Origin: Ostreococcus lucimarinus
Taxonomy: Eukaryota
Assembly (NCBI GenBank): GCA_000092065.1
Contig: CP000585.1
DNA length: 64,000 nucleotides
Reading direction: 5' to 3' (one strand)
Each line of letters begins with the position of its first letter. The first letter of the stretch is position 1. A program made the position numbers and the translations under genes. This document shows, piece by piece, positions 3,301 to 39,910 of this stretch. A model generated the notes under the pieces. That model had not been told where the DNA came from and ran no database searches. It saw only the letters and a list, made by a program, of their open reading frames with translations.

Positions 3301-3323
3301 AACGTCGAGGAGGGCACGGGACG

Positions 3324-9300: not shown

Positions 9301-12300
9301 TTAACAAGCCTCCCGTGCCGCGGGGTGCGTTGCCCGAGGCGCCGAGTGACGAGGAAATCGTCGAACAGGTATTTTCAGATCAAGTGGCGTTGGATAGGGT
9401 CACTTTATCAGTCAAGCATAAACGCGTCGAAGAGAAAGACTTTACGGATGACACGACAGTTATCGTAAACGGTGCCGTACTGTTCCCCAGGGATCTCGTC
9501 GAACAATCCAACGACTGCGGACTCTTCAAGGCGACTATTGAAGTATTCGAACCCGAAGGAGAAGTTGAGGAATACCATACGGATGAGCGAGGCTTCTTCA
9601 AGTTTGCTCTCACTCGTGGGAAAACGTTCAACATACGCCCAAAATACAAGAATCACACGATATGCTACGCTGGCAAAACCATAGAGAACGCTGTCGAAGA
9701 CGTGCACACATGCAAAGGACGCAGCGTGGTCAAGACGCTTCCAAACGTTCAAGATGGCAACTTTGTATTTTTCACCGACGTCACGCGAGGTGTCATCGAC
9801 CTTGGACTATACCACGGAGAGTGTGAACGGCGATACAGCGGTGCTGTGTTTAAGATCACGCCGATCAATGGATGCCACGCTCCAAAGTTTGTGAAGAGCG
9901 AAGAAGTTGAAGGGTGGAATGTCGCAAACACCGGGATGAGTGAGGACGCTAAATTTTGGCCGTTCGCCGCCATGGATTACTCGATCAAGCTCGTGTCGGG
10001 GCCTGACGTGAATGGCATCCAACCGTTGATTGAGAATGAGCCGTGGGCGGACGGATGTGGTACGGAGCCTGGCTCGATGGTGGCTTTCTTTCGATCACGA
10101 AACGCCCATGAACGAATGGCGGCCATGCGCGACGACTACGATTTGGTGACAATTCGGTACAAGTATCACGGCTACATTTGCGTTGAGATCGTGGACATTC
10201 CCAAAATACGAGATCCATTGGAAGTCTGTTACGATCCAAACGAAGCGGACGGTAATCTCACGATTCAACATTTCCTCGGAACTACGACTTCCGAAGATTT
10301 GGGCAGCGTGAGCGGTCAGATTCTTCTCCAAGCGAAAGTGTTCGAATTGCATCTTGATCAAGTCGACGGCGAGCCTGTGCTTTCAAAATGCTTTGAAGCG
10401 TTACCTAACAAGGAAGCTCAGACGGGCAGCACTCTGCTCAGTTTCAGACAGTCGGTCACCGATGAAGACGACAATGAGTGCCATCCAAACCGAGGCGGCG
10501 GACCACTGTGTGATTTTGACACGACGATCGAGCCTGCGTCCGAACTCGTCATTTGGAATACAGACGGTGATACCAGCGTGGAGGTCGTCGCTGGTACGCC
10601 TAATCTCGCCGGTAATCATCGACGAACTGTGGAATTCACCATCAAGCGCTTCGATACGTACAAACTCGTCACCGCGTACGCAAAGCGTGAGCTCATACCT
10701 CTGGGCTCGAAACCTCGAGGAGAAGGGCTCTTCGGACCGGACAGTGACGATGTCTACTGGGCGACTGTGCCTTTGGAGGGTTTGGTCTACACCGTCGTGC
10801 ACGATCCACCCGGTGGTCTCTCGTACGCGGAATTATCGACGGGCTCTCAAATTGGACTTCAGTTTGACTTGGTTGGGAAACGTATGGCGAGCGAGGGCAA
10901 AGGTGGGGCGTCGAAGAAACAACTTCCCGAAATCGATAAGTCCGTCGATGTTGGTTTCAACGCCGGATGGATCGCCGAAGGTTCTTTGTCGACGGACCTG
11001 CATTTGATCTCGTCAAAAGGCGAGTTCAAAACTAAAACGGATGGTCCAACGATGCGTATAACGAGCAAAGAAGACAAGGGGTGGAGTCTCGAAACCACGA
11101 CAGAACGAACGATTCGTTCGAGCAAGGACGCAGGTACTCCTGGGAGAGCAGGCGATGTCATTCTCGGCGGTGGTATCGAGCTCGTGTACAAAATATCGGA
11201 CATCTTGGATGTCGTAAACGATGTTCGAACACTCAAAAAGCCTTGCTTGTACGTGTATGGCGAAATCACGTGGTTACCGCGAAAGCCGACGTCGTACATC
11301 ATGAGCGTCGCGTCGATCGAGACACAAGTCATGCCTAATCTGTACTACTTGCGAACGTTGGTGCAGGAAGGTGGCATCGAAGCAGACGGGTCGGAAATGT
11401 TTTATGACTGCGCTTCCGGCGCGACGAGTAAAGAAATGACCAAGTGCACGAAAGAGGATCAAATCGAAGCTTGGATGCAATATCTCGACAACAAGATTGA
11501 CCTTTGGCGTCGAACACTTGAATGGTCTTCTCCGAAAGTGTTCACCATCGATGAGGGTGGTGTGAAGACGAAGTTTTACGAAGCCATCGAGAGAATCACA
11601 AAACCGGCGTCTGATGGTGGTTTTATGCACACGAACTACAAAGTCCAGGTGGAACAATTCAAGAAGGCGTACGCCAGACCGATTAAGGATATTATCGAAG
11701 AGGTCGGCAGTGCTTGGGATTCAAGTTTCTTCATGATGCCTTTCAACGGTATCGGCCCACCACCGTTTTTTGACGACCCGAGAGTAATTGGTGGCGTGGA
11801 TTGGATGCTTGATTCGCGGTACTGGGAGTATGGTAAAGGCGACACAGCTACGTACAGTAGAATCCGTGGGATTACACCTCGGACGGATTCTGACGCGAGA
11901 ATCGCCGCTTTTGCCTCCTTGGATGCCATTGTCAATACCGGAGGCATCATCGACACGGTGACGAAGAATTTAGACGCGCCGAAGAAACTCGCCGCCCGTC
12001 GCAAGGCGGCTGCCGCCGCTGCTGCTAAGATAAGTAAATCGTATGCTGCTAAGCAAAGGCTATTAAAGGCGGCCTCTAAATGGAAAAGTCTTGCAAAGAA
12101 ACCACCGCCGGGATTCATCACGAGATCCGCCCAAAAGCTCACGGCGGCCAAGAACATGGCCACAAAGGCGGCCAAGACCACAGCCGGACAAGTTGCGGGC
12201 GCCATCTTGCTCAGCGCGGCGGTAGCGGGCGCAGTCGCAGCTGGCCCGGCGATGGATCAGATGGGCTACAAGTATGCCGCCTATCCACGCAAGTATTACG

Positions 12301-14834
12301 AGGATGGCATACCGGCATTTGAAGAAAACTTCTTCGACGATGATTCTGGAGTGCTCACAAAAGAAGACCAAGCCAAAGATGAAGACGGGATGCGAGGAGC
12401 CTATACGTGGGGGATGTTCAGTTCGGCGACGAACGATTTGTTGCGACAATTTAAAAGTTGTGCCGGGAGAGAGTGCAATCGCGATGATATCAGAGTCGAA
12501 ACGCTGTCGATGAGCAACACATCTTTCGGCGAAGACTACTTACTTTGGAACACAAATGACGCACCTGATGTGTCGCGGAGGGTCGTGGCGTCCTTCACGG
12601 GTGGACAAGCTGCTACGGGTATGAATGTGACGACGAACGTGAACGCTACAGACGGTGTACCCGACAAGGGGACGTTATTATTGACGTTCGGCGGCGGTGG
12701 TCACACCGCAGATTATTCATTTTCTTCGAATGAAAAGATTGCAGATCTTCACACCAGCCTCGGTGTTCAACTGTCAGCAAAGCAGTCCAACAAATACAAA
12801 CTCAAACTCGGAGGCTTGCTCGGCTCGACCGTTCAACTTGCCATGGCGCTCGGCGGGGTGGACGATGAGGCTGTCTATACCTTCAAAAAGTCATTCGCTG
12901 AAGATCGAACGTTCGCTTGGAACAGACACGCCTCTCTGAAAACGTTGTACAGTCTAGGTGACGCTCAACTCGGAGATAAGTTTGTCGTGCAGGTTGGAGA
13001 AGACGTGCGCTTTGGTACGCCGGTGTTCATCACAAAGGGTGGCAGAAGCTCGTGTCCCGGTGAACCTTTGACGATGTTTCGACAGGCGGGCTTTTCCTTA
13101 TCCAAAGAAACTTCGTTTAACGAAAATCTGAATCCTGATGAAAGTGCTTTGTTACACTTGAAATTGACCAACGAGTCGCCGTACAAGGAAACGTTTCCGC
13201 TCGGAATGCGCATTGTTGACGGTCTCGTGATGTCGGTCCACAAAGTGATTCAGGACATGTACGAAACGCTGGCCAAGGAAGACGTGACAGGGTTGGACGT
13301 TTTGAAAGCCGTCGATAATTCGATCGCGTCGCTCGCTATCGGGAAAGATGCCGACGTCATCAAAACAATGAAAGAAAACGCGCGAGTGGCCGTGGAAGAA
13401 CACTCGGCGACAGCAGTGGACGTCGCAGCGGTGGTTGTACAAGCCTCGCGGAGAGCTCCACCAACGTTTGAAGACTTGCAGAACATCGAGTTCAGTATGG
13501 GTGGAGAGGAAGTATACTTTGGCGACGTATTACCTCTAAAATTTGTGGACGGTGAAGATTTGAAAGTTCAGAAGAAGGTACTTGAGACGTCTTTCGCGCT
13601 TACCGTGACGGCTGCGAGCCCGTCGAGTCTTCGACTGGAGCACGTCGCCGTCGTCGTCATGAGTTTATGCGAACACGAAATCAGCCTAATGTCAAAGTTC
13701 GGTCGAGAACCGATCAGCACGAACACTCTTCCGCTAGGATTGATGACGTGGAATCAAAAGTGTCCGAAAGTCGCCTTCGACGGTTCCACAGTGGCGGATT
13801 ACTTGTTCTCGAGCGTCTCATCTGCCACGCCCAAGCCACTCAAGTTGACCGTCTTCAATCCGGACGGAGCTTTGTTATGGCCTGGCTCTTCGGATGACGT
13901 CCGAGCTATCAACCCGAATCTTCGATTCGTTCGGTTGCAATATCGTCCCGCGAGCGGCGGCGAATGGATCACGGCAAAGTCTGAAGACAGCGATCCAAAG
14001 TTCAGTTACAAGAAAAACCTGTTATGCGACGGGTCACGTCTCGGTGGTTGCACTTTTGACTGGGACGTCAATAACCAGTACGAAAAGCTTCTCAGTGGCT
14101 TTAAGGATAACATTTACGAGTTGAGATTGAAGAACTTTTGCTTTGGCACGGAAAGTCGTCCGATCAGCGCCTTGGCGGACAGCACCGTTCACGAGTACGT
14201 CTCTGATCAAATCCTCACGCTCAGAGTGGACACCAAGACGCCGATTCCCGGCAGGTCGTATCCTTCGTTCAAGCGATTTTACACTGTCGAGTTCCCCGAA
14301 GCGATCGACTGCTCGGATCAAAAAGTTGCCATCACGAAGAAACGCGCATCCTGCGGAGACGACGGGCAAAGCGTCAATCAAGCCGTGAGCGAAGACGCAA
14401 TCAAGTCAGGCTTTGACTTCCAATGCTCCAATAACGAGGTTGGCTTCAAGTGGATGGTTGGATTTCCTAACACTGAAGTGGGTCAGTACGCCGTCGAAGT
14501 GAGCGGTGTTCGTGACGAAGCCGGGAACGCCGCCGCGCCGTTTACCTTCGTCATGGACGCGAACTGCGCGTCTTCTCAAAAGCTGTCCCTCGCGCGCTTC
14601 GGTCTAGGCGCGAAGAAACGGTCGACTGAGGAAACGGGCGATGTGCCAACGAGTGCATTTGACGTTCCAATCACATCGATGCCCGGCACGTGGGTTCTCG
14701 CGGGGTGCTGCCTCGTCGCCGTCTTCGCCGTCGTCGTCGGCGTTTTCCGTCGCGCGCCGCGCGTCGAGGACAAGGAAAAATCTCCACTCTCCTTTGTCGC
14801 CCGTCGACACCCGCCGTACGGCGCGGTGGTGTAA
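3324..14834 (+). CDS. Giant secreted type-I membrane glycoprotein (3,836 aa, single exon): signal peptide, 3 kringles, 3 TSP1 repeats, LamG/ConA-like segment, poly-Pro and SPPP repeats, EF-hand pair, large uncharacterised region, C-terminal TM helix
   Basis: Signal peptide MRRWRCVDAVVVGAALMLMATVTSALSA from ATG 3324. Kringle consensus: CDETLRGWRDEGYRGCQTRTRNGRTCQQWDSQSPHGHS..NYCRNPDGEPTIWCYTT..WEYC, three times. TSP1: WGSYTSCDALCGSGRKYKTY...GGRSCS, YWGQWSNECTPTCTSGRRYRWRY..., FGSWSTCSAKCGWGKRQKTFT.... EF loops: DFDGSGNVMRSE and DRDEDGVLDATE. Extensin-like: SPPPSPPPSPPPS. C-terminal TM: GTWVLAGCCLVAVFAVVVGVF then RRAPR. Confidence 0.85.
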   Translation: MRRWRCVDAVVVGAALMLMATVTSALSARGAGAHRDAEGEGDVGGVVDDAADASRGANETAGNDATAALGWGCDETLRGWRDEGYRGCQTRTRNGRTCQQWDSQSPHGHSRRNCAKGSCGRGNNYCRNPDGEPTIWCYTTNRNVRWEYCDPLPQPVHCAGRWGSYTSCDALCGSGRKYKTYTVTRNAQHGGRSCSYSNGAKHYADCTTSCAAPTVSIGNPLTRVASNTVDFGLSVKHSVACGGDCLTSAWSRRWMVKIFATVRKDGVSCSSYGAYLPCKRWDDFRDDTTHPSQLLGLTTDTGALDPGTYVIEYVAVLNHYITKQELSRTTGTHTFSIERGCESILPSASSDSGVENSELTKYVLLSADDFVRAPCDKLHDVRESIFRKYDTNPTDGVLDYDELDRAIREQGGDGYILKVWNQIRPLRLSLGHFMEAIVAPHTCASSESVQSVSFKSVVYPSTEAGRETTRKDCAKNAGAMAVDWGYGPKNPPKSGDTVCVFVDGVLFQVNEPKNTAPPHSKDHHSEVAGLWTLTKITDKRPVVGAIGDVQPSLVAQFTFDTEREIGDTVRSDRIFSAAPLASGEKARPYISYSGQHISACSGASGGQCIVARGDGFNYVGDSLGGAVAFSAWVRVAESSATTLIEFSGTDGQLRNSFTLVMDCSSSACTLRASYDSVGTGGNLAKKEISAPMRQWVLVGFTLSHNAGLKLFALPDDSTSTTTASHPSWPKDTLPKLPNIKLFSASRGGGQQHIDDVRLYAGVMDMEMFFIARDCGRGTLCAMRAHATPSHRRVVCVFTQVKGAKTGQPACAGALYYDGTAIDVRASMDLAGVFFEFRDTAWEEKSFEIERRAPAVNGNFDSKFDTVVLIEGGLKGCAAKFSSITYIDRDASYTPYSEWLYRITTKNPDSDDANEITYLLSPQLTFRTPWMSQIEGRVLAGASTEGVRNVRMCAEFDTFVTRTPATEDFQADVEYENLAAFKSVTHSNRAQTSTSYVVTDGDDAGKSSNVDANEHIRINLGSWASVSTVEVCHKRLESSATSMFSAHVQDYDPGKSTYFGHDCLMDSVRDVCDETLRGQGGIGYRGCQTKTRSGRTCQQWDSQSPHGHSNRNCAKGSCGNNYCRNPDGAPTIWCYTTDRYKRWEYCDPDPLPHACLTYTCKGTDVNSFHGQYVTVKALTKAQVTEIKVNGRKTKCKYTAVTDDDGEYAMDLKDTSGKLPVKATLHIGAYKEEIFPETTEVLIDSKRNAQGQYPVPKSQAHNVLLILRENFETSELGMLRNDRRTETTSSPHASANGVYVDEFAAMQELGYDEFENADEFENGLQNDQTEYDVHHDGGNETAGNNTTAALGWGCDETLRGWRHEGYRGCQTRTRSGRTCQQWDSQSPHRHSRRNCAKGSCGNNYCRNPDGEPTIWCYTTDRRKRWEYCNPLPQPVNCYGYWGQWSNECTPTCTSGRRYRWRYYRISRYPRHGGLSCSYKNGQKGWGYCPPKPCPVNCDGRFGSWSTCSAKCGWGKRQKTFTIHTAAAHGGQSCSHKNGYTVTENCYSQHCPPPPPPPPPPGAAEVEEFIEWVLLKGVESNRKGHVERTLTGSGWTAGAVSKRAIRGASDTVRGVSAVCKESTSQHRMIAMNSQSTADSTSYQSLDFAIYCFPWNSVSYVRVYERGKAFGNAAKAYSESAVVQIALNDAGKVEYFVDGLKLMTSDQTVTYPLHVDVSLHEQGASLEDVRWTRRVSSPPPSPPPSPPPSPPPSPPPPPPPSPPPPNHELEDVDFDGSGNVMRSELVDYIEAITISSEGGHVIITDDVWAKLDRDEDGVLDATEFKDVVNRIEAQQLVVEPIIVFPLQDAQYMYDFSMFQTSDDAANSGPRTGHVLEGGESCENLMIVRSRSATLPFGNAQWTKFYETLRDEQHRFECRNLSKIEVPAIDVGAVDSTYVIPVLAHKNGTNYLILDTTSVAVHTSNETKALDMMHRMTRDNFRLRVQAQKRLPDILHSFNKPPVPRGALPEAPSDEEIVEQVFSDQVALDRVTLSVKHKRVEEKDFTDDTTVIVNGAVLFPRDLVEQSNDCGLFKATIEVFEPEGEVEEYHTDERGFFKFALTRGKTFNIRPKYKNHTICYAGKTIENAVEDVHTCKGRSVVKTLPNVQDGNFVFFTDVTRGVIDLGLYHGECERRYSGAVFKITPINGCHAPKFVKSEEVEGWNVANTGMSEDAKFWPFAAMDYSIKLVSGPDVNGIQPLIENEPWADGCGTEPGSMVAFFRSRNAHERMAAMRDDYDLVTIRYKYHGYICVEIVDIPKIRDPLEVCYDPNEADGNLTIQHFLGTTTSEDLGSVSGQILLQAKVFELHLDQVDGEPVLSKCFEALPNKEAQTGSTLLSFRQSVTDEDDNECHPNRGGGPLCDFDTTIEPASELVIWNTDGDTSVEVVAGTPNLAGNHRRTVEFTIKRFDTYKLVTAYAKRELIPLGSKPRGEGLFGPDSDDVYWATVPLEGLVYTVVHDPPGGLSYAELSTGSQIGLQFDLVGKRMASEGKGGASKKQLPEIDKSVDVGFNAGWIAEGSLSTDLHLISSKGEFKTKTDGPTMRITSKEDKGWSLETTTERTIRSSKDAGTPGRAGDVILGGGIELVYKISDILDVVNDVRTLKKPCLYVYGEITWLPRKPTSYIMSVASIETQVMPNLYYLRTLVQEGGIEADGSEMFYDCASGATSKEMTKCTKEDQIEAWMQYLDNKIDLWRRTLEWSSPKVFTIDEGGVKTKFYEAIERITKPASDGGFMHTNYKVQVEQFKKAYARPIKDIIEEVGSAWDSSFFMMPFNGIGPPPFFDDPRVIGGVDWMLDSRYWEYGKGDTATYSRIRGITPRTDSDARIAAFASLDAIVNTGGIIDTVTKNLDAPKKLAARRKAAAAAAAKISKSYAAKQRLLKAASKWKSLAKKPPPGFITRSAQKLTAAKNMATKAAKTTAGQVAGAILLSAAVAGAVAAGPAMDQMGYKYAAYPRKYYEDGIPAFEENFFDDDSGVLTKEDQAKDEDGMRGAYTWGMFSSATNDLLRQFKSCAGRECNRDDIRVETLSMSNTSFGEDYLLWNTNDAPDVSRRVVASFTGGQAATGMNVTTNVNATDGVPDKGTLLLTFGGGGHTADYSFSSNEKIADLHTSLGVQLSAKQSNKYKLKLGGLLGSTVQLAMALGGVDDEAVYTFKKSFAEDRTFAWNRHASLKTLYSLGDAQLGDKFVVQVGEDVRFGTPVFITKGGRSSCPGEPLTMFRQAGFSLSKETSFNENLNPDESALLHLKLTNESPYKETFPLGMRIVDGLVMSVHKVIQDMYETLAKEDVTGLDVLKAVDNSIASLAIGKDADVIKTMKENARVAVEEHSATAVDVAAVVVQASRRAPPTFEDLQNIEFSMGGEEVYFGDVLPLKFVDGEDLKVQKKVLETSFALTVTAASPSSLRLEHVAVVVMSLCEHEISLMSKFGREPISTNTLPLGLMTWNQKCPKVAFDGSTVADYLFSSVSSATPKPLKLTVFNPDGALLWPGSSDDVRAINPNLRFVRLQYRPASGGEWITAKSEDSDPKFSYKKNLLCDGSRLGGCTFDWDVNNQYEKLLSGFKDNIYELRLKNFCFGTESRPISALADSTVHEYVSDQILTLRVDTKTPIPGRSYPSFKRFYTVEFPEAIDCSDQKVAITKKRASCGDDGQSVNQAVSEDAIKSGFDFQCSNNEVGFKWMVGFPNTEVGQYAVEVSGVRDEAGNAAAPFTFVMDANCASSQKLSLARFGLGAKKRSTEETGDVPTSAFDVPITSMPGTWVLAGCCLVAVFAVVVGVFRRAPRVEDKEKSPLSFVARRHPPYGAVV
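3507..3790 (+). repeat. Kringle-encoding DNA repeat, copy 1 (near-identical at nucleotide level to copies 2 and 3)
   Basis: The segment ggccgcgctcggctggggatgcgacgagacgctccgagggtgga...tgcgccaagggctcgtgcggg...aactactgcagaaatcctgacggcgaacccacgatctggtgctacacgacg recurs at 7343-7615, with few substitutions over >240 bp. Confidence 0.9.
6534..6770 (+). repeat. Kringle-encoding DNA repeat, copy 2
   Basis: Same unit: tgcgacgagacgctccgaggccagggaggcatagggtatcgagggtgccagacgaagacgaggagcggccgcacgtgtcagcagtgggattcgcagtcgccccacgggcactcgaaccgaaattgcgccaagggctcgtgcgggaacaactactgcagaaatcctgacggcgcacccacgatctggtgctacacgacggacag. Confidence 0.9.
7343..7615 (+). repeat. Kringle-encoding DNA repeat, copy 3
   Basis: Near-identical to copy 1, including 30 bp of upstream flank (gggaacaacacgacggccgcgctcggctgggga...). 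Confidence 0.9.
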
Positions 14835-30847: not shown

Positions 30848-31555
30848 TTAATCTCCATCTACGTACGAGACGCACTTTTGCACGAGGTAGCGCCGCGCGT
30901 CGGCGCCGAACGCCTTCGCGTACGCGTCGCGGAGCGCGAGACGGCCCATGTAACGCGCCAGCGCGGGATACGGCGCGAAGCTGACGTCGGGAAAGAACTG
31001 CGGCACGTAGAGCAGATACGCGCCGACGGCGACGTCCGCGACCGAGAAATCGCCCAACAGATAATCTCGAGACGCCAAGACGTCGTCGAGCCGTCGGAGT
31101 CGCTTATTATTCGGGTCGCGCGCCTTGGTGTCCACCACGCCACCGCGCTCGTTCTCGACGAACAGCACGGGATCCAGCGACGCGTTCGCCCACGACACCC
31201 ACGCCGCCGCCGCGGCGCGCGTCTTCGGCGTGTCCAAACCGCCGTACGCGTCGGCGAGGTACATTAAAATCGCCCCGGACTCGAACAGTTCGAGCTCGCC
31301 GCCGTCCGCGTCGGCGTCGTCGCGCAGCGCGGGCACCTGTCCGAACGGGTGCGGGTTCGTCTCGTCCCTCGGCGCGCGCATCGCGAGCTCGAGGCCGATC
31401 TCGTGCGCGTACCAGTTCACCAGCGGCGACCGCGAGCCCTGCGACCCGTACAGCGTCGTCGCGCGCGTCGTCGCGCGGCGTCCCGACGTCGCGCGCGACG
31501 ACGCGCGTCGTCGCGCCGGCGTCGCCGCGCGCGCGCGCGTCGGCGCCGCGCGCAT
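30848..31555 (-). CDS. Glutathione S-transferase with ~33-aa Arg-rich presequence
   Basis: GST N-terminal thioredoxin-like domain: LYGSQGSRSPLVNWYAHEIGL...FGQVPALRDD...LFESGAILMYLADAYGG. The ORF start at 31648 is a GTG; the first ATG is at 31555 (MRAAPTRARAATPARRRASSR). Confidence 0.7.
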   Translation of the reverse strand: MRAAPTRARAATPARRRASSRATSGRRATTRATTLYGSQGSRSPLVNWYAHEIGLELAMRAPRDETNPHPFGQVPALRDDADADGGELELFESGAILMYLADAYGGLDTPKTRAAAAAWVSWANASLDPVLFVENERGGVVDTKARDPNNKRLRRLDDVLASRDYLLGDFSVADVAVGAYLLYVPQFFPDVSFAPYPALARYMGRLALRDAYAKAFGADARRYLVQKCVSYVDGD

Positions 31556-31689
31556 CGGCGTCGTTCGCGCCGCGCGCGTCGCGATGCGGTCGCGACGCCG
31601 CGCCGCGCTGACGTCACGACGACGAGACGCGCGGCGCGCCCCGCACACGACGACGCGCGCGACGCTCGAAGCGCGGCGAACGGCGCGCG

Positions 31690-32256
31690 ATGCTCGCGGC
31701 GACGCTCTCGACGCGCGTCGCGGCGCGCGCGCGCGGCGACGCGACGACGCGCGGCGACGCGCGCGCGCGCGTGGTCGCGCGCGCGAAAAAGGGCGGCGCG
31801 TTCCTTCGCGAATTCGGCCCGGAACCGACGGAGAGCGAGAAGGCGGCGATCGAGGCCAAGGCGCAGGACGCCGCGGGAGGGTTCCCGGCGCTGGAGAAGC
31901 AGGAAGGGCAGGACCCGTTCAGCGTGAACCTGATGGTGAAGAAGTTTGGGCCGCTCAACTTGGTGTGGAACGGCGTCGGGACGCTGCAAGTGCCGGACGC
32001 GGGAAGCAAGCCGGCGAGCGTGAACCTGGCGCGGGTGTGCTTGGCGCAGCGCGCGGAACTGCTGATCGAAAACTTTGAGCGGTTGTATCCGAAATTGAAG
32101 AACGAACGCGTGGAGTGGGCGCTGCAGCCGTTCGACGACCAATACGGCGACGCGTTCGATCCGTTCATGTCTTTACCGGACGATCAGGTCGACGAGTTGG
32201 TGCCCGGGAACTTGCAATTCTTGAAGAAACCGCGCAAGGTCGCGCCGGGGGCGTGA
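31690..32256 (+). CDS. Hypothetical organelle-targeted protein (188 aa). The N-terminus MLAATLSTRVAARARG resembles a transit peptide.
   Basis: Clean ATG. Well-mixed composition after the presequence. No family recognised. Divergent from the GST gene, with a 134-bp spacer. Confidence 0.5.
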   Translation: MLAATLSTRVAARARGDATTRGDARARVVARAKKGGAFLREFGPEPTESEKAAIEAKAQDAAGGFPALEKQEGQDPFSVNLMVKKFGPLNLVWNGVGTLQVPDAGSKPASVNLARVCLAQRAELLIENFERLYPKLKNERVEWALQPFDDQYGDAFDPFMSLPDDQVDELVPGNLQFLKKPRKVAPGA

Positions 32257-32408
32257 TTTAGATTTTGAAGATTGTTATCGACGTTCGCGCGTTCGTCTTC
32301 GTCCCCGCCGCCTCGTCGACGTCGATTGCCCGAGTTCGCGTCACTCGACGACGCGCGCGCGGTCGTTCGAGCGCGCGCTCTCTCTCGCGAGTTTATTTTC
32401 ACGACGTC

Positions 32409-34541
32409 ATGGCGTCGTGCGTCGCGCGCGCCGCGCTCTCGACGCCGTCGCGCGTCGTTTTCTACGACAAAAAGCGCACCCCAGCCGCCGCCACGCGCGC
32501 GAGGGTCGTCGTCCCGCGCGCCGCGGACGCCGACGCCGACGCCGCGGCGCCCGCGGACGCGTGGCTCGAAGCTCGCCGCGCGGACCTGAGCGCGCTGACG
32601 GTGGAGAAAGGGCTGAAACCGCTGTGTCGAGGGTACGGGCTGAAGCTCGGCGGCTCGAAGACGGCGCTGCTGGAGCGCGTGCTGGCGCACGAGAGCGCGA
32701 ATCGCGCGGAATTCGCGCCGATGGAGGCGGTGGTGGAAAAAGCGAGCGCGTGGAGAAATTCCAGGGTGGTTCGAGTGGACGAGGCGAGCGCGAGGGCGAT
32801 CGAGGAGGCGAATGCGGTCAAAGCGGAACGACGGGAAAAAGCCGGAGGCTGGGGACGGGACGAAGAGGACGATTACGGCGACGACGTGGACGAAGACCGA
32901 GGATGGGGGTCGTCGTGGGCGCGCAGGGAGGACGAGGAGGAATCGTCCACGGCGCGCATGCGAGATATCGAGGCGAGGTACCCGCAGTTGAGGTTGGCAG
33001 ATGAGAAATTGACCAAGGATGACTTGGCGCGACGCGTGGCGGTGGTGAACGGCTTGCGAGCGCTCGCCAAGGAAAAAGAAGGCTATGAGGCAGATGTAGG
33101 GTTGCATTTGGAAGCCATCGCGCGAGCGATCGATAGGGGCTATAGAGATATGCGAGGGAGCGCGCTGACGGTGTTGCAAAAAGAAGTTCGGGCGCGGATA
33201 GACGTGAGCGTGGACATCGACGTGCAACGCGGTCGATTCGCCGTGCTCGTGCAAGTCGTCGGTCGAGGCGGGACAGTTGAGCGCGAATACGACGACACCA
33301 AATTTTTCACGTTCAATGTCCGGCGACAAAATCGCATGCGAACGTTGATTCGTTACATGAGCGAGGAGATTAAAACTGGCGTCGCGCGTCTGGCGACGGA
33401 AGATTTCGTCGGTCAAATCGGCAACGTCGTCGACGGCACGTTGCGTTTCCGCACCGAAACCGGGTCGTGGATGATGGACATAAAAGGCGGCGCCGCGGGT
33501 GTGATCCCGCCAGAGGAGCAGCTCTTGACTTATAACGACTTACCACTCAAGCAAGGGGACGAGTTGTCGTGCTTCGTGCTCGACGTCGATCAAAACTTGT
33601 TCACCGGTCGCGAGCAAACCCCGGTGGTGCTGTCGATGACCATTCCGGCGTTGGTCGGCGCCATCATTCGCGAAGAAGTTCCAGAGGTTGCGCGCGGGGA
33701 GATAGAGATTAAGTCGATCGCGAGAATGGCAGGCAAGGTGACGAAAGTCGCGGTAGCTCTACGCGAAGGATCAACTTCGTGGAGCAACGCGGTGGAAACG
33801 TGCCTGGGCGAAGATCAGAGCATTTTGAGACGCATTCGCGAACGATGCGGCGGCGAAGTCGTGCACTTCCTTCCTTGGTCCGACGATCCAGCGGAACTGA
33901 TCAAGTCTTCTTTATTCCCAGCTGAAGTGTTACGAGTGGAAGAAAGCTTCCCGGATGGCACGCAAAAGCGAAAGTTTACGGCGTACGTGAAGGAGGTGGA
34001 TCTCCGTCGAGCGATCGGCGCCGGCGGTAATAACGTCAAACTCTGCGCGTCGCTCACCAACGCATTCATCGTCATCGAAGTTGACGAGACCGCAGGAAAC
34101 ACTCAACGTCGTGGATCTTTCAACGACGATCTGGACGACTCTTACGACAGTGGATTCTGGGGCGACGATCGCGAAGATGACTTTTTCGGCGGCGGCGACG
34201 CTGAAAATTTTGCCAACAATCTCAACAAGGATAGATTCAGCGAGCAGACGCAAAGCGTGCAACTGGACGATCTCGGCTGGCCCGATCTCGATGACTTCGA
34301 TGATTTACCCACCACGAATGCCGCGGGGCGGGGACCTCAGGACATCCCCTCGGTGAGCGAATTGAAAACGCTCGGCGAGACGTTCTCGCAATCGTTCGAA
34401 GGCGACGACGACGCGGAGGAATGGGACGTCGGTCCGGGCCGTCCGGGATTGACCACGTTCGGCGCTACGGGACGTCCGGGTGTCGTCGGCACCGCTCTCT
34501 TCTTTGGCGACGAAGCGGGTGAATACGACGACGACGAATAG
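32409..34541 (+). CDS. NusA-like transcription factor homolog (S1 + two KH-like domains) with N-terminal presequence, SAP domain and acidic C-terminal tail
   Basis: SAP: LTVEKGLKPLCRGYGLKLGGSKTALLERVL. NusA core: VGAIIREEVPEVARGEIEIKSIARMAGKVTKVAVAL...VHFLPWSDDPAELIKSSLFPAEVLRV...AIGAGGNNVKLCASLTNAFIVIEVDE (compare bacterial NusA EVPEI..G.VEIKAIAR.PG.RAKIAV......IVLWSDDPAQFV.NA..PA.V...AIGRNGQNVRLASQLTGW.L). The ORF start at 32265 is a non-ATG; the first ATG is at 32409. Confidence 0.65.
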   Translation: MASCVARAALSTPSRVVFYDKKRTPAAATRARVVVPRAADADADAAAPADAWLEARRADLSALTVEKGLKPLCRGYGLKLGGSKTALLERVLAHESANRAEFAPMEAVVEKASAWRNSRVVRVDEASARAIEEANAVKAERREKAGGWGRDEEDDYGDDVDEDRGWGSSWARREDEEESSTARMRDIEARYPQLRLADEKLTKDDLARRVAVVNGLRALAKEKEGYEADVGLHLEAIARAIDRGYRDMRGSALTVLQKEVRARIDVSVDIDVQRGRFAVLVQVVGRGGTVEREYDDTKFFTFNVRRQNRMRTLIRYMSEEIKTGVARLATEDFVGQIGNVVDGTLRFRTETGSWMMDIKGGAAGVIPPEEQLLTYNDLPLKQGDELSCFVLDVDQNLFTGREQTPVVLSMTIPALVGAIIREEVPEVARGEIEIKSIARMAGKVTKVAVALREGSTSWSNAVETCLGEDQSILRRIRERCGGEVVHFLPWSDDPAELIKSSLFPAEVLRVEESFPDGTQKRKFTAYVKEVDLRRAIGAGGNNVKLCASLTNAFIVIEVDETAGNTQRRGSFNDDLDDSYDSGFWGDDREDDFFGGGDAENFANNLNKDRFSEQTQSVQLDDLGWPDLDDFDDLPTTNAAGRGPQDIPSVSELKTLGETFSQSFEGDDDAEEWDVGPGRPGLTTFGATGRPGVVGTALFFGDEAGEYDDDE

Positions 34542-34606
34542 CCGCGCCGCGTTCACATTGCTGTAACTCAACCGACACACGACTTTTCTTCACACGACGA
34601 CGCACC

Positions 34607-35869
34607 ATGTCGACCGTCGACCCGTTCGTGTATCCGATGATCGCTCGCTCGCTCGCTCTCTTCGCGCTGAGCTTCGTCACCGCCGCCGACCGACGCGAGG
34701 ACGACGCGACGTTGCGGTTGGAACTGACCTTGACCACGCGCGTGGCGTCGGCGAGCGCGACGCTTCGCGTCGCTCGTCGGACAATGTCGCATCCCGAAGC
34801 GTTCATGCGCGCCTTCGCCGAAATGCTCGACGCGTACGGTCTCGAACAGACGAAGATGTTTTCACACGCGACGCTGTTCGTGCCGACGGCGTCCAACTGC
34901 GCGGTGCGGTTCGCCAAGAGTCTCGGCGCCGAGTGGAGCAGACAGGTCGTCGAGAGCGTCGGAGACGAAGTTCAATGTTGGTTGATACTGGATTTTGAAT
35001 GGTCGGGCGCGCAAGATTCTCGAACAACTTTCTTGCGGGACACGTTCGGGCTGTTCTTGAATGGATTGCGCGCGGCGATGTTGTTTGTTGATATTGGAGC
35101 GCGAGTCGACGAAGTCGTGTACGACGACGAACGATCGACGGCAAACGCGGCGACAGTATTCGTGAACTGCGCTCGGCGAATCGGGATCTCGGATTCGACC
35201 TGGGCCGCCATCGTGCGCGTTGTCGTTGGTTCGATCGAGAGTCGCCCCTTCATCGACCGCGACGGTATTTCGGTGTACATCAACGGAAGTTTGATGCCGT
35301 GGCGTCAGACTCGCGCCATGGTTGATCATTTGTGGACGCTCGACGAACGATTCAAATCGTTTGGACTCCCTCCGCTTCGCCAAGATCTCACTTTGGACGC
35401 CAATGCCGAGCACGTCGTATACTTTGCGCCACCTTGTGAGACGACAACGACGACGACGTACGTGCGCCGCGTCACGATACACTTTCTCTCCACCGCGGCA
35501 AAGCCCGCCGACGTGGTTTGCTCGGCGTTTCCGCTCGCGGGTGTCGCCGACGCGATGAAAACCACGATGACTTCCGATATTCCGATACGCGTCAGCGCAG
35601 AGTTGTCCACCGCGGGCATGTTCGACGCCCTGCAAATACTGAAACGCGACGATCCGATGCGATTTAGCTCGGCGGAGGAGAAGGAATTCATTGAGACGAG
35701 CGATCGCATCGGCCGGGGCGTGCTCGCGATTTTAGAATCGCCCTCGAGCGACGTCGCGCGAGACTTTTGCTCGCAGCGCGATGCGGATGATGAAGACTGG
35801 CGACGAAAGGTGCTGAGTAACCTTCGATCGAGTCGCGTGTACGCGGCGAATTGCGTGGAGATGAAGTGA
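34607..35869 (+). CDS. Hypothetical protein (420 aa), no recognised domain
   Basis: Clean ATG, protein-like composition, fills the gap between two confident genes. Confidence 0.5.
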   Translation: MSTVDPFVYPMIARSLALFALSFVTAADRREDDATLRLELTLTTRVASASATLRVARRTMSHPEAFMRAFAEMLDAYGLEQTKMFSHATLFVPTASNCAVRFAKSLGAEWSRQVVESVGDEVQCWLILDFEWSGAQDSRTTFLRDTFGLFLNGLRAAMLFVDIGARVDEVVYDDERSTANAATVFVNCARRIGISDSTWAAIVRVVVGSIESRPFIDRDGISVYINGSLMPWRQTRAMVDHLWTLDERFKSFGLPPLRQDLTLDANAEHVVYFAPPCETTTTTTYVRRVTIHFLSTAAKPADVVCSAFPLAGVADAMKTTMTSDIPIRVSAELSTAGMFDALQILKRDDPMRFSSAEEKEFIETSDRIGRGVLAILESPSSDVARDFCSQRDADDEDWRRKVLSNLRSSRVYAANCVEMK

Positions 35870-35914
35870 AAGAATTATACGCTGGTTTAACAACTGTTGG
35901 TACAACGACCGCGA

Positions 35915-36940
35915 TCACCCGCGGGCGCCTGGGAATAGCACGGTCTCGGCGAAGTCTCGCGCCCACTCTTCTCCGTACCAGCTTGCAAACATCGCGATCG
36001 CTGGATCGTGCTCTAACTGCCACGCGTCGTGCGCGTCTTGCGCCTCGCGCGCCGAAGCCTCCGTCAGCACGCACCTCCGCACGTCCTCGAGAGACAGACC
36101 GAATTTGCACGCTCCGTCCATCGCCTCTGCCTCGCGCTCGGCTTCATCCAAACGATCGAGCCAGACGTCTAAGTACGCCCGCACGACGTCCAGCGACCGC
36201 GCCATCGTCTCCTCGTTCGCGAGAGCCGGTCGCGCGAAGAACATCCCGCGCGAGAAATACGTGGCGTCTTCGTAAAACTTCTTCGACGGCGTCGTCGCGT
36301 TCAGCGCCTCCGCGCACGCCGACAGCGCGCCTCCATCCCTAAGTTTCAACAATTTCGGCACGTACGCGTCGTTGTAATCGCGATCCCGACTCATCGGCTG
36401 CAAATCCACCCCTATTAAAATCTTCCTCGCCGCGCCGACGCCGACGCAAATCAAATCCACGCCGAACACCGGCGCATCGCACGCCTCGCACGCCGGATAC
36501 ACCGCGCAGTTATAAATCTGCGCCTTCTCCCCCCCGTCGACGTACGTCGAGCGCACGCGCCGCAGCCTGCGCGACGACCACGCCTCCGTCGTCGTCGTCA
36601 CGCCGCGCTTCGCGTTCGCTCGCGCCGCGAACGCGTCGTCCACGCGCGCCTCCTCGAGTCCCTCGCCGCAGCGCGCGCGAAGCGTCGTCCGCACGCACGC
36701 CTCGTGTCGCCGAAAGCTGAACCGCGCGTCGCCCGCGTCGCCGTCCTCGCGCGTCCTCGCCGTCGCCTCGGCGTCGCCGCGCGCCGTCGCCCGCCCGCTC
36801 GCGCGTCGCCTCGGCGTCGCCGCGCGCGCGCGTCCCGCCGCGCGCCTCGGCGTCGCCGCGCGCGCGCGCGTCGACGCGTCCATCGCCGCGTTCGCGTCGC
36901 GCGCGATCGCGACCGCGCGCGCGCGCGTGTGCGACGGCAT
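35915..36940 (-). CDS. Ferredoxin-dependent bilin reductase (FDBR family; PcyA/HY2/PebA-like) with plastid-type presequence
   Basis: FDBR core KAQIYNCAVYPACEACDAPVFGVDLICVGVG (compare K.....V.FP....DlPiFG.DlV). Overall ~340 aa after moving the start from the GC-artefact ORF start at 37351 to ATG 36940 (MPSHTRARAVAIARDANAAMDAST...). Confidence 0.65.
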   Translation of the reverse strand: MPSHTRARAVAIARDANAAMDASTRARAATPRRAAGRARAATPRRRASGRATARGDAEATARTREDGDAGDARFSFRRHEACVRTTLRARCGEGLEEARVDDAFAARANAKRGVTTTTEAWSSRRLRRVRSTYVDGGEKAQIYNCAVYPACEACDAPVFGVDLICVGVGAARKILIGVDLQPMSRDRDYNDAYVPKLLKLRDGGALSACAEALNATTPSKKFYEDATYFSRGMFFARPALANEETMARSLDVVRAYLDVWLDRLDEAEREAEAMDGACKFGLSLEDVRRCVLTEASAREAQDAHDAWQLEHDPAIAMFASWYGEEWARDFAETVLFPGARG

Positions 36941-37525
36941 TCGCTCGCGCGCGCGTCGACGCCCATCGTCATCATGCGCGCGCGCGCGACCGCGAGCACC
37001 GTCGCGCGCGCGCCCGTCGCGCGCGTCGCCCGTCGCCGCGCGCGCGTCGCCGTCGCCGCGGCGCGCGCGCGCGCTGGACGCGCCGACGCCGACGCGAACG
37101 CGACGCCGACGGCCGCGGTCGACCGCCGCGCGGTCGTCGTCGTCGCGCTCGCGTCGTGCGTCGCGCGCGCCGCGATCGCGCCGACGCCCGCGCGCGCGGT
37201 CGATCTCGCCGAGGCCGCCGCCGCGAAGGAGGCGCGCAAGGCGGCGCTGCGCGCGGCGGCGGCGGCGAGCGCGACGTCGGGGCGAGGGGAATCGGCGTTC
37301 GACGCGCCCGAGTACGGCGTGAGCGAGGAGAGCCGCACGCCGAACGCGCACAGTCGACAGGAGGAGGGGCTGAAGAAGGCGGTTCGCGACAACGCGTGAG
37401 CGCCGGAGCGCGCGCGACGGCGCGAAGGGCGTCGCTTTTTGTAATCGTCAAAGTCACACACGTTTTTGTCGAGCGCGCGACGAACGCGCGCGACGTCACA
37501 CGCGCGCGATGGGACGACGACGGGC

Positions 37526-39910
37526 ATGAAGCGCACGCTCGAGGGGACGGTGAAGACGTCGGCGCGCGCGTCGCGCGCGCGGGCGGCGCGTGCGAGCGGG
37601 CGGGCGGTGGGACGGACGGACGCGGTGCTGGCGCGCGCGCGCGGCGCGACGCTCGGAGACGTGCGACGCGAGCAGATCGACGCGGCGCTGCGGTTACTGA
37701 TCGACGAGCAGTGCACGCTGCCGTTCGTGGCGAGGTATCGCAAGGAGAGGACGGATGGGCTGGACGAGGGACAGTTGCGCGCGGTGGCGGCGGCGCACGC
37801 GGAGTGGACGCGATTGGAATCGAAGCGCGAGAGCGCGTTCGAGGCGTTGACGCGGTTGGAGATCGTGGACGAAAGGTTGTTCGCGAGATTGCGCGAAGCG
37901 AGCGCGGTGGAGACGATCGAAGACTTGATGAGCAAGTATAAGACGAAGACGAGCAGTCGCGCGGACAGGGCGCGAGAGCTCGGCTGCGAACCGCTCGCGG
38001 AGAAGATTTTGAGCGACGGCGCGGGGGGGGTCGAGGCGTTAGCGCGCGCGTACGTGAATGGGAATGATGTTCCAGACGTGTGCGAGGCGTTGAGGCTGGC
38101 GAAAGATGTGCTCGCGGAGAGGGCGGCGAACGAGACGAGCGCTCGGGAGGCGGCGAGACGATCGACGTGGCAAAACGGAAGGCTTCAGTGCGCGTTGACG
38201 ACGAATGGGAAGGCGGCGGTGGAGGGAAAGATTGACGATAAAAAGATGAAGAAGATAGCCGACGCGTTGAGGGACTACTACGAGTTCAACGCGCCATTGC
38301 GAAGGGTGAAGCCGCATCAGACCTTGGCGATTTTACGCGGCGAAGCCGCGAAGGTGTTGCGAGTGAAGATTGATTTCGACGTCGCGTGGGCAACGTCGGC
38401 GGCGATGAAAGCCATGGTAGGCTCGAGACGCTTAGGTGGGGGTTGTTATAACGTCGTTAGCGAGGCGGTGGAAGATGGTGTGAAACGGTTGCTCGCACCC
38501 TCCATCGAACGCGAGGCGAAGAGTCGACTCAAGACGGAGGCGATGGAGCGCGCCATCGCAGATTTCGGCGCTAATCTTCGCTCACTGCTTCTTCAACCGC
38601 CGCTGACACCCGCAGCTGTCGTGCTCGGCGTTGATCCAGCGTATCGCACCGGCTGCAAACTCGCCGTGGTTGACCCTACGGGAGCTCTGCTCGATACCGG
38701 CGTCGTACACTTGCCGCAATTCGAGTCGAAGGTGAAACGAGAAGGCGGCGGTCAATCCGCAGCCGCGAGCAAGCTGCAAGCGTTGGTGAAGCAATGGAAC
38801 GTCAAGGCGATCGCGATCGGCGACGGCGTAGCGAGTCGCGAAACCGAATCGCTCGTCGCCACCGCGCTCGCTGGTTTTGAAGGCGTCGGTTGGCGCGTCG
38901 TCTCGGAAGCCGGCGCCTCGGTGTACAGCGCCTCCGAAATCGCGGCGAAAGAGTTGCCGGACATAGACGTGTCATTGCGCGGAGCGGTATCTATCGCGCG
39001 AAGACTGCAAGATCCGATGGCCGAGCTCGTTAAGATCGAGCCCCAGTCCATCGGTATAGGACTGTATCAGCATGACGTCAAGGAGAAGGAGCTCGCTGAC
39101 GCGTTGACGGCGACGGTGGAGAGCGCGGTGGCAAACGTCGGTGCGAATCTAAACACATCCTCACAGTCGCTCTTGTCGCGTATTCCAGGCCTCGGCCCGT
39201 CGCTCGCGGCGAAGATCGTGCGACATCGCTCTGAGCGTGGAAGGTTCCGCGAACGCGCCGCGCTGAAAACCATCGCGGGCGTGGGCGCAAAGACGTATGA
39301 GCAAATAATTGGGTTCTTGCGCGTCCCGGACGCGAAAGACGCGCTGGAGCGCACTTCGGTGCACCCCGAGAGCTACCACATCGCCAAAAAGCTGTTGAAG
39401 ATGCTCGAAAGAGACGTGGCTGAGGTGATTGATCTCACGGCGAGCGACGCCGGCGACACGTCGATGGACGCGCTGAAACGCCTCAAGCCCAAACTCAAGG
39501 CACTTCGCGACGACGTAAAAGACCTCGAGGCGCGCGCTGCGCGCCTCAAGTGCCACCCCTTAACGCTCAAAGACATCGCGAACGAACTCAGCGCCCCGGG
39601 TGATGACGCCCGAGGCCAAGCCGCCGAGCAAAACGTGCTCCGAACGCAAGCGCTCACGCTCGAGGACTTGCAAACGGGCGCCGAAATCAAAAACGCCGTC
39701 GTCCGCAACGTCGTCCCTTTCGGCTGTTTCCTCGATCTCGGCGTCGGCCGCGACGCCCTCCTACACGTCACCGCGATGCGCAAACGCACCGACGCCAACC
39801 CCAACGCCCAAATCGATCCCCACGCGCTCTATCGCGTCGGCCAAACGTGCGCCGTTCGCGTCAAATCCGTCGACATCGCTCGCCAGCGCATCGCCGTCGA
39901 GCTCCCTTAA
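37526..39910 (+). CDS. Tex-like transcription accessory protein (SRBD1-type: HTH/YqgF/HhH/S1) with N-terminal presequence
   Basis: LLIDEQCTLPFVARYRKERTDGLDEGQLR (compare Tex LLDEGNTVPFIARYRKE.TGGLDD.QLR), central YqgF/HhH region, C-terminal S1 domain GAEIKNAVVRNVVPFGCFLDLGVGRDALLHVT. Confidence 0.8.
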   Translation: MKRTLEGTVKTSARASRARAARASGRAVGRTDAVLARARGATLGDVRREQIDAALRLLIDEQCTLPFVARYRKERTDGLDEGQLRAVAAAHAEWTRLESKRESAFEALTRLEIVDERLFARLREASAVETIEDLMSKYKTKTSSRADRARELGCEPLAEKILSDGAGGVEALARAYVNGNDVPDVCEALRLAKDVLAERAANETSAREAARRSTWQNGRLQCALTTNGKAAVEGKIDDKKMKKIADALRDYYEFNAPLRRVKPHQTLAILRGEAAKVLRVKIDFDVAWATSAAMKAMVGSRRLGGGCYNVVSEAVEDGVKRLLAPSIEREAKSRLKTEAMERAIADFGANLRSLLLQPPLTPAAVVLGVDPAYRTGCKLAVVDPTGALLDTGVVHLPQFESKVKREGGGQSAAASKLQALVKQWNVKAIAIGDGVASRETESLVATALAGFEGVGWRVVSEAGASVYSASEIAAKELPDIDVSLRGAVSIARRLQDPMAELVKIEPQSIGIGLYQHDVKEKELADALTATVESAVANVGANLNTSSQSLLSRIPGLGPSLAAKIVRHRSERGRFRERAALKTIAGVGAKTYEQIIGFLRVPDAKDALERTSVHPESYHIAKKLLKMLERDVAEVIDLTASDAGDTSMDALKRLKPKLKALRDDVKDLEARAARLKCHPLTLKDIANELSAPGDDARGQAAEQNVLRTQALTLEDLQTGAEIKNAVVRNVVPFGCFLDLGVGRDALLHVTAMRKRTDANPNAQIDPHALYRVGQTCAVRVKSVDIARQRIAVELP

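Follow-up and report, generated by a model that had tools for sequence, protein, structure and literature searches.

What does a Tex protein of bacterial type do in a unicellular green alga, and in which compartment of the cell would it work? The question is raised by a gene on contig CP000585.1 of Ostreococcus lucimarinus (assembly GCA_000092065.1), within a stretch of 64,000 nucleotides that we analysed as a whole and refer to as the window. The original prediction, made from the letters of this stretch, described a Tex-like transcription accessory protein with an organellar-type presequence, and grouped it with a NusA-like gene and a bilin reductase gene nearby as a local cluster of plastid-directed gene-expression factors. 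Here we consider the gene, its leader, its neighbours and its ancestry in turn.

A full-length Tex-family gene in the nuclear genome

The Tex coding sequence (37,526–39,910, plus strand) is complete and intronless, with 794 codons and a stop, as established from the list of open reading frames (ORFs), Pfam, an exact-sequence look-up, and PDB sequence and fold matches. Its product is identical to a "predicted protein" of O. lucimarinus CCE9901 (ABO96150.1, XP_001417857.1, UniProt A4RY29), so the gene is already publicly annotated. The MKR start is the first ATG and is shared by all Ostreococcus-type orthologues; two of these have in-frame stops close upstream of it, and the MMETSP transcript of one orthologue was called complete from this start. 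A TTG lying upstream in the same frame (37,466) was considered as the start and dismissed for the first ATG, because MKR is conserved and the MMETSP transcript is complete from there. Between the stop of a small upstream ORF and the Tex ATG, sequence reading and the flanking ORFs delimit an intergenic spacer of 126 bp (37,400–37,525, plus strand), which we presume to hold the promoter and 5′ untranslated region. The ORF is a single-exon nuclear gene of O. lucimarinus whose product is a full-length Tex/YhgF/SRBD1-family protein.

Pfam recognizes the complete set of six Tex domains in the canonical order, each above its gathering score. Tex_N (PF09371, E = 2.5e-18; residues 46–108, 37,661–37,849) includes the invariant PF.ARYR.E motif and is followed by the Tex central region (PF22706, E = 3.3e-20; residues 170–345, 38,033–38,560) and the YqgF/RuvX-like domain Tex_YqgF (PF16921, E = 1.3e-44; residues 365–495, 38,618–39,010). 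Two helix-hairpin-helix modules (39,128–39,613), HHH_3 (PF12836, E = 1.8e-21; residues 535–599) and HHH_9 (PF17674, E = 9e-12; residues 606–696), precede a C-terminal RNA-binding S1 domain of OB fold (PF00575, E = 1.2e-6; residues 723–792, 39,692–39,901), which also matches the domains of ribosomal protein S1; all five features lie on the plus strand. The hallmarks that had been read from the sequence, from an N-terminal block to a terminal S1 domain, thus agree with the Tex profiles, and the motifs quoted for them are in place: LPFVARYRKE...GLDEGQLR spans residues 65–85, and the R/A-rich leader MKRTLEGTVKTSARASRARAARASGRAV lies at the N-terminus. LPFVARYRKE itself (residues 65–74) is invariant in our homologue alignment (A1), as are R727, N728, F732, F735, D737, H747 and R788 of the S1 domain; D370, E439 and E461 of the YqgF-like domain are invariant in an alignment of 38 homologues. 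Of the S1 residues, F732, F735, H747 and R788 lie on the domain surface, and the helix-hairpin-helix modules likewise keep their invariant residues. The central region carries a lysine-rich insertion, KIDDKKMKKIAD (approximately residues 233–246), that is gapped against Pseudomonas aeruginosa Tex and contains an internal K[KR]x[KR] pattern (KKMK, residue 239). These results support a genuine and complete Tex/SRBD1-family protein of bacterial type in a eukaryotic (prasinophyte) nuclear genome.

Among solved structures, a PDB sequence search placed P. aeruginosa Tex (2oce/3bzc) first, aligned over residues 43–792 (E = 5e-112). An AlphaFold2 model (pLDDT 85.5, pTM 0.81) matched the same structures with TMq 0.73, TMt 0.79, E = 8e-51 and a structure-based identity of 34–35%, first among all PDB chains and above the Spt6 cores; the fold predicted by the model is that of P. 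aeruginosa Tex. The algal protein has the six-domain order and a length similar to those of bacterial Tex/YhgF (P. aeruginosa PA5201, Escherichia coli YhgF), and retains their invariant PF.ARYR.E, YqgF and S1 residues. Unlike them, it is nuclear-encoded in a eukaryote, begins with an Arg-rich N-terminal extension of 31 residues, and has small insertions, lysine-rich near residue 240 and acidic/basic at approximately 631–700. By analogy, binding of single-stranded nucleic acid through the S1 and helix-hairpin-helix modules would also be expected of it.

Among eukaryotic proteins, human SRBD1, compared here by its published description, is likewise nuclear-encoded and shares the Tex core architecture (PMC10201417, PMC11830093). 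Histone binding and a topoisomerase II role are noted for the human protein. Its Tex-like core occupies residues 211–995, with approximately 210 residues ahead of it (PMC10201417), whereas the algal protein has only the 31 beyond the bacterial N-terminus. According to the same study (PMC10201417), most eukaryotic supergroups contain YhgF/Tex homologues and E. coli YhgF is an RNA binder in vivo. The earlier remark that eukaryotic homologues of SRBD1 type are poorly characterized is partly out of date. The Spt6 core shares the Tex-like fold (HtH, YqgF, HhH, DLD and S1; TMq 0.60–0.69 by Foldseek), but at 16–21% identity, and the algal protein, approximately half the size of Spt6, is clearly nearer to Tex. 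It is without the acidic N-terminal region of Spt6, S1 closes the chain at residue 792 of 794, and Pfam gave no match to the tandem SH2 domain that is a feature of Spt6.

The N-terminal leader and the cellular compartment

The protein has 64 residues ahead of the VPFIARYRKE anchor against a median of 33 in bacterial Tex, which leaves approximately 31 extra. This extension, MKRTLEGTVKTSARASRARAARASGRAVGRT (residues 1–31; 37,526–37,618, plus strand), lies beyond the bacterial N-terminus and is predicted to be disordered or of low confidence, with pLDDT below 50 at residues 1–24; the remainder of the R/A-rich stretch that had been quoted as leader is helix 1 of Tex_N. With seven R, seven S/T, seven A and one acidic residue, the extension is presequence-like and resembles the transit peptides of the plastid-type neighbours. 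A targeting peptide, a nuclear-import patch and a plain low-complexity tail are candidate roles for it.

A role of the leader as a transit peptide or presequence that is cleaved off, at least in the subclade of O. lucimarinus, is a tentative reading for which several observations speak. Its helical hydrophobic moment is the strongest of the 24 window N-termini scored, and four Ostreococcus lineages that form one clade have comparable leaders (P0002, P0003/6, P0416 and the window's own). The protein matches bacterial Tex in size and is 40–49% identical to it, and its gene lies in a run in which six of seven consecutive genes, including those for the bilin reductase and the NusA-like protein, encode Arg-rich N-termini. 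As a conceptual analogue and no more, TEFM, the human mitochondrial transcription elongation factor, has HhH and RuvC/YqgF-like modules related to Tex/Spt6 (PMC3105396), and so offers a precedent for a Tex-related fold working in an organelle. TEFM was absent among the PDB sequence and fold matches of the algal protein. To our knowledge it has no Tex_N, central or S1 domain. An organellar Tex might act as an RNA-binding transcription accessory factor, whether in the mitochondrion or, together with the NusA-like protein and the bacterial-type RNA polymerase, in the plastid; we hold this role, too, to be possible rather than probable. If the protein were organellar, it would be a new bacterial-type factor for algal organelle transcription.

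Against this stands the base rate of such N-termini. The window is GC-rich, and 10 of its 24 scored genes encode Arg-rich, acid-poor N-termini, which are a common by-product of the composition of this genome; the leader itself has a GC content of 0.80 against 0.62 in the gene body. Nor is the extension kept in related orthologues. The excess over bacterial Tex is 5 residues in the O. tauri-type orthologue and 18 in that of P0011 type, from a second Ostreococcus lineage, each with five acidic residues among its first 25; in the Tex of Micromonas commoda it is 12, with an in-frame stop upstream. OUS47783.1 of O. tauri, extended to its MKRRR start, and P0428 of Tetraselmis are among the orthologues compared. 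With the extension missing or acidic in these three, organellar ancestry would require two to three independent losses. Motifs of the type of a nuclear localization signal (NLS) occur instead at the N-termini of other chlorophyte relatives: PPAKRRKG in two other Micromonas lineages, where KRRK is the NLS-type element, and KKR-x12-KKAR in Tetraselmis. Three Ostreococcus lineages have KRRR, KRAR or KRSR from residue 2, and a eukaryotic homologue, P0567, has KR-x11-RKRQR; in all, NLS-type N-terminal patterns were present in the O. tauri-type, P0011-type, P0416, Micromonas, Tetraselmis and P0567 proteins. No cyanobacterial affinity was apparent among the named top matches, and a search of the literature on Tex or SRBD1 in plastids, mitochondria or algae found nothing relevant: no report of a plastid or mitochondrial Tex, and no proteomic or imaging data on localization. 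Of the organellar-type presequence originally proposed, what stands is an extension of presequence-like composition; its weight as a targeting signal is diminished by the base rate and by its absence from related orthologues.

We therefore somewhat favour a vertically inherited, nucleic-acid-binding protein of the Tex/SRBD1 family that is nucleo-cytoplasmic rather than organellar. The compartment is the least certain step; a nucleo-cytoplasmic or nuclear location, like that of human SRBD1, is more likely than a plastid or mitochondrial one, because only one Ostreococcus subclade has the presequence-like leader, and the other chlorophyte orthologues lack a leader or have one that is acidic or of NLS type. 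Human SRBD1 is nuclear, and the NLS-like N-termini of several chlorophyte orthologues fit that location. As a family member, the algal Tex would work as a monomeric nucleic-acid-binding scaffold. Its S1 and helix-hairpin-helix modules would hold single-stranded RNA or DNA, as has been shown for P. aeruginosa Tex, E. coli YhgF and human SRBD1, and it would act on nascent nucleic acid as an accessory factor and not as an enzyme.

Some features of the protein sit less easily with a nuclear, SRBD1-type protein. Searches of its N-terminus with NLS regular expressions (K[KR]x[KR] and bipartite) gave no match, and its leader is transit-peptide-like and shared by the four Ostreococcus lineages; the N-terminal region of SRBD1 is missing from it. 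A further reading, which we regard as unlikely, is that an anciently inherited Tex/SRBD1-type protein gained a functional presequence in the O. lucimarinus subclade and works there in the plastid or mitochondrion, possibly with the NusA-like protein and its SAP domain. Were this gain true, it would represent a recent switch of compartment between sister species, in a family for which we found no paper on an organellar member. The N-termini of sister Ostreococcus lineages do differ sharply, presequence-like in some and acidic with KRRR in others, an observation of modest value.

The gene neighbourhood

The neighbours of the Tex gene are as originally described. The NusA-like ORF (32,409–34,541) ends 2,985 bp upstream, and the gene for a ferredoxin-dependent bilin reductase (35,915–36,940, minus strand; Fe_bilin_red, E = 2.3e-60) lies next to Tex. 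The NusA-like product matches the NCBIfam NusA model below its curated cut-off (E = 4e-36) and Pfam KH_5; it is a divergent, Mamiellales-specific protein with SAP and S1/KH domains, and neither Pfam nor NCBIfam detected a NusA N-terminal domain in it.

The notion that the NusA-like, bilin reductase and Tex genes form a functional, co-regulated cluster for plastid gene expression is very improbable. In its favour, an Ostreococcus lineage with a Tex only 69% identical retains the order of GST-like gene, 188-amino-acid ORF, NusA-like gene, 420-amino-acid ORF, bilin reductase, small ORF and Tex, and six genes out of seven in a row encode Arg-rich N-termini. However, the enrichment in that run was noticed post hoc and reached only P ~0.10 by permutation, the bilin reductase does not belong among gene-expression factors, and the divergence of the NusA-like protein counts against the cluster too. 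The conserved block, moreover, holds the GST-like gene and extends equally over genes for a trehalase, CSN5, an HSP70 of HYOU1 type and a fatty-acid hydroxylase, which points to general collinearity. It also includes genes for ER and cytosolic proteins.

In the comparison with related algae, gene order around Tex was kept among Ostreococcus-type contigs and only there, and neither the NusA-like gene nor the bilin reductase gene lies within 10 kb on either side of Tex in M. commoda. The proposed cluster accordingly reduces to genus-level synteny with unrelated genes, and the adjacency of Tex to the NusA-like and bilin reductase genes is ordinary synteny in a compact genome.

Ancestry of the green-algal Tex genes

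In the sample used, the orthologues from Ostreococcus, Micromonas and Tetraselmis were monophyletic, and their branching matched the species tree; both chlorophyte monophyly and this topology were recovered in 100 of 100 neighbour-joining bootstraps over 709 columns, in trees built without cyanobacterial or alphaproteobacterial Tex or animal SRBD1. This pattern indicates that green algae have long had the gene by vertical descent, and that it is neither a recent transfer nor a contaminant. A recent bacterial transfer or an assembly contamination might be read from the high identity to bacterial Tex (40–44%) and from nearest named relatives in Chloroflexota and Bacillota, but we reject it, since the gene lies between eukaryotic genes on an O. 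lucimarinus chromosome of 847,696 bp, many independent marine metagenome contigs carry it with the same neighbours, its GC content and codon style are like those of the host, its orthologues follow the species tree, and there are introns in the Micromonas gene and in that of P0567, a homologue from outside the Mamiellales on a nuclear scaffold of 10.4 Mb.

A much older transfer, into an early ancestor of the green algae or a still earlier eukaryotic one, is possible. Two observations count against the reading we favour: the similarity of the window protein to bacterial Tex equals that to any eukaryotic relative found, and the grouping of chlorophyte Tex with other eukaryote-like homologues received a bootstrap of only 28–40%. 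Among the matches listed (the closest 120–150), the nearest named bacteria belonged to Chloroflexota and Bacillota, at 40–49% identity, and no cyanobacteria were among them. With the Tetraselmis orthologue as query, the matches listed outside its own cluster were bacterial Tex or unlabelled, at 44–49% identity.

As it stands, the gene is of little moment: it is catalogued (A4RY29), its family is well defined and homologues are reported in most eukaryotic supergroups. Green algae nevertheless retain a compact Tex of bacterial size that tracks the species tree. O. tauri is genetically tractable, and the algal protein could therefore offer a minimal system in which to study the function of SRBD1/Tex, which is poorly understood.

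Two further searches concern more distant relatives. Long matches of 1,000–1,650 amino acids were considered as SRBD1 and ruled out, as they begin at the Tex N-terminus without an extension and form a clade apart from the chlorophytes. A pattern-based scan of GTDB genomes returned 16 loci from Bacilli, Planctomycetota and Nitrospina at 33–38% identity, a result uninformative on ancestry.

Architecture, fold and proposed function of the Tex protein

The ORF at 37526–39910 (+) in the ORF list encodes a 794-residue protein, which exact-sequence look-up matched to ABO96150.1/XP_001417857.1 (UniProt A4RY29), recorded as "predicted protein; S1 motif domain-containing protein". The window belongs to the nuclear genome of the prasinophyte green alga O. 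lucimarinus CCE9901, and other ORFs in it are likewise letter-identical to RefSeq proteins of that strain, among them a YedE-type membrane protein (A4RY39) and the NusA-like protein (XP_001417855.1/A4RY26). Independent marine metagenome contigs carry the identical Tex protein with identical neighbours. The Tex gene is already publicly annotated, and at most an uncharacterised addition to a known family.

All six Tex modules scored above their Pfam gathering thresholds, in canonical order: Tex_N (residues 46–108), the Tex central region (170–345), YqgF-like (365–495), HHH_3 (535–599), HHH_9 (606–696) and S1 (723–792). This confirmed the original prediction of Tex hallmarks from an N-terminal block through a C-terminal S1 domain. 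The top solved relative by sequence was P. aeruginosa Tex (E 5e-112, end-to-end alignment). An AlphaFold2 model, for which 38 homologues were the input, had a pLDDT of 85.5 and a pTM of 0.81, with pLDDT below 50 only at residues 1–24 and 405–409. In superpositions of this model, Tex ranked first (TMq 0.73, TMt 0.79) and the Spt6 cores next. We rejected an Spt6 identity because the window protein lacks the SH2 domains of Spt6 and identity is low (16–21%). The motif PF.ARYR.E, the YqgF-like residues D370/E439/E461 and the S1 residues F732/F735/H747/R788 are invariant in the 38-sequence alignment. Architecture, fold and residue conservation are thereby established, and by every sequence and structure criterion the protein belongs to the Tex/YhgF family.

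Homologues of Tex are on record from across the eukaryotes. RNA binding has been shown in vitro for P. aeruginosa Tex and in vivo for E. coli YhgF, whose targets include mRNAs and sRNAs (PMC10201417). The human protein SRBD1 interacts with histones as well as nucleic acids, and helps topoisomerase II-alpha to localise on chromosomes (PMC11830093). Compared by description, SRBD1 and the window protein have a common core, but SRBD1 has a long N-terminal region that the window protein lacks. By analogy with the family, the window protein may be a monomeric scaffold that would hold single-stranded nucleic acid via its S1 and HhH modules and accompany transcription or replication.

A lysine-rich insertion (KIDDKKMKKIAD; window 38220–38265, residues ~233–246) is gapped in the pairwise alignment with P. 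aeruginosa Tex, and may serve as an internal patch for nuclear import or for binding nucleic acid. Placed by residue number rather than alignment, K[KR]x[KR] motifs occur at similar positions in the homologues P0002 (KRVK) and P0003 (KRAK), and Tetraselmis Tex has a bipartite-like KKDPLAERRNEGGGKSRPK near this region.

Ancestry, N-terminal leader and compartment

In a neighbour-joining tree of 67 sequences and 709 columns, chlorophyte Tex proteins formed a single clade, (Tetraselmis, (Micromonas, ((O. tauri-type, P0011-type), (P0416, (P0003/6, (window, P0002)))))), with 100/100 bootstrap support at every node. This topology indicates an old, vertically inherited gene and rules out recent transfer. 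The nearest named bacteria were Chloroflexota/Anaerolineae and Bacillota (40–49% identity), and no cyanobacteria appeared among the named top matches of either of two database searches. A profile search covering 1.84 billion representatives found more eukaryote-like Tex homologues, scoring slightly above the best bacterial ones; these adjoin the chlorophyte clade in the tree with bootstraps of only 28–40%.

The R/A/T-rich start of the protein had been read as an organellar-type presequence. The VPFIARYRKE anchor is preceded by a median of 33 residues in bacterial Tex proteins and by 64 in the window protein, so the true extension is ~31 residues (MKRTLEGTVKTSARASRARAARASGRAVGRT); the rest of the R/A-rich stretch originally quoted aligns with Tex_N helix 1. 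The leader does resemble a presequence, since it is Arg/Ala/Ser/Thr-rich with one acidic residue and, of 24 N-termini scored in the window, that of Tex ranks first in helical hydrophobic moment. However, composition is a weak signal in this genome, because 10 of the 24 window genes have Arg-rich, acid-poor N-termini and the extension has 80% GC (versus 62% in the gene body). The extension is also found in only one subclade (window, P0002, P0003/6 and P0416).

Outside that subclade, N-termini differ. The O. tauri-type orthologue (58% identity, clustering with OUS47783.1), whose locus has downstream HSP70 and fatty-acid hydroxylase neighbours in common with the window, starts MKRRRAWDGEGGDARGVAGEDARGT with in-frame stops upstream; it is extended by 5 residues, and 5 of its first 25 residues are acidic. 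P0011-type Tex starts MKRARESELDD and has 18 extra residues, 5 acidic. The M. commoda protein starts 12 residues ahead of helix 1, and a stop codon precedes its ATG by three codons. More distant relatives bear nuclear-import-type motifs: PPAKRRKG in two Micromonas lineages, KKRSQIQHPSETVQPKKAR in Tetraselmis astigmatica, and KRDREQDESVAAQRKRQRP in P0567. The gene for this last homologue has introns, and its neighbours on a 10.4-Mb eukaryotic scaffold are CDC14-type phosphatase, F-box and CH-domain genes. In other eukaryote-like relatives the N-terminus is unextended, or bears a SAP domain or a long K/R/E-rich tail.

We lean slightly towards a nucleo-cytoplasmic or nuclear Tex, the least certain step of our reading. 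A pattern search found in the window N-terminus none of the nuclear-localisation patterns seen in relatives, so the nuclear reading rests on orthologues and parsimony: an organellar ancestry requires two or three independent targeting losses, against at most one gain for a nucleo-cytoplasmic ancestry. An organellar Tex is doubtful, and organellar targeting within the single Ostreococcus subclade seems rather unlikely.

Gene neighbourhood and adjoining ORFs

The original prediction further suggested that Tex lies in a local cluster of plastid-directed gene-expression factors with the NusA-like gene (32409–34541, +) and a bilin reductase (35915–36940, −). Gene order is GST-like, 188-aa ORF, NusA-like, 420-aa ORF, bilin reductase, 141-aa ORF, Tex, HYOU1-type HSP70 and fatty-acid hydroxylase. 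All of it is kept in an Ostreococcus lineage with a 69%-identical Tex, and at least Tex, HSP70 and hydroxylase in two more distant lineages; this is whole-block collinearity, to which ER and cytosolic genes also belong. The genes around Tex in M. commoda are DOT1, CCB1, Patched-like, DDA1 and Atg3-like, and both the NusA-like gene and the bilin reductase are absent within 10 kb. Six of seven consecutive genes at 30848–39910 (GST-like, 188-aa ORF, NusA-like, bilin reductase, 141-aa ORF and Tex) have Arg-rich, acid-poor N-termini, a run that is suggestive at most given a within-window permutation P of ~0.10. The synteny and permutation results argue against the cluster. Overall, the original interpretation is partly supported.

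The NusA-like protein is divergent and Mamiellales-restricted, and may be of greater interest than Tex. Its relatives are found only in Mamiellales and, at ~30% identity over a third of its length, among bacterial NusA proteins. It has the NusA S1/KH1/KH2 region, a cTP-like leader and a long acidic C-terminal tail; the NusA N-terminal (RNA-polymerase-binding) domain was not detected with Pfam or NCBIfam, although the PDB alignment to M. tuberculosis NusA begins at chain residue 43. A SAP match is sub-threshold here, and Pfam SAP is recorded for Micromonas-type relatives. The same addition occurs in a Tex-family protein, P0657, encoded on a marine metagenome contig (L026, 437–2917), with an N-terminal SAP ahead of Tex_N through S1 in Pfam.

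Between bilin reductase and Tex lies a 141-aa ORF (36974–37399, +), its ATG 33 bp from the start of the divergently transcribed bilin reductase. An Arg-rich leader is followed by RR, a hydrophobic stretch and A-x-A (RRAVVVVALASCVARAAIAPTPARA, then VD), so that the N-terminus resembles a thylakoid-lumen (Tat-type) signal; three further Ostreococcus-type contigs (L006–L008) conserve its C-terminus (SEE.RTPNAHSRQEEGLKKAVRDNA). The ORF had no Pfam match and no exact counterpart in the protein collection searched, and the reference annotation may therefore lack it. The 420-aa ORF (34607–35869, +) has the same sequence as A4RY27, an annotated predicted protein, and the 90%-identity cluster of the 188-aa ORF (31690–32256, +) includes the shorter annotated A4RY25 (107 aa). 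Neither matched Pfam even at E ≤ 1; contig L006, from a 69%-related Ostreococcus, has a similar-sized ORF at both positions. Elsewhere in the window, a single 3,874-aa ORF (3210–14834, +) has a GC of 0.52–0.57, distinctly lower than the ~0.61 of the window, and a repetitive RETTR-type N-terminus.
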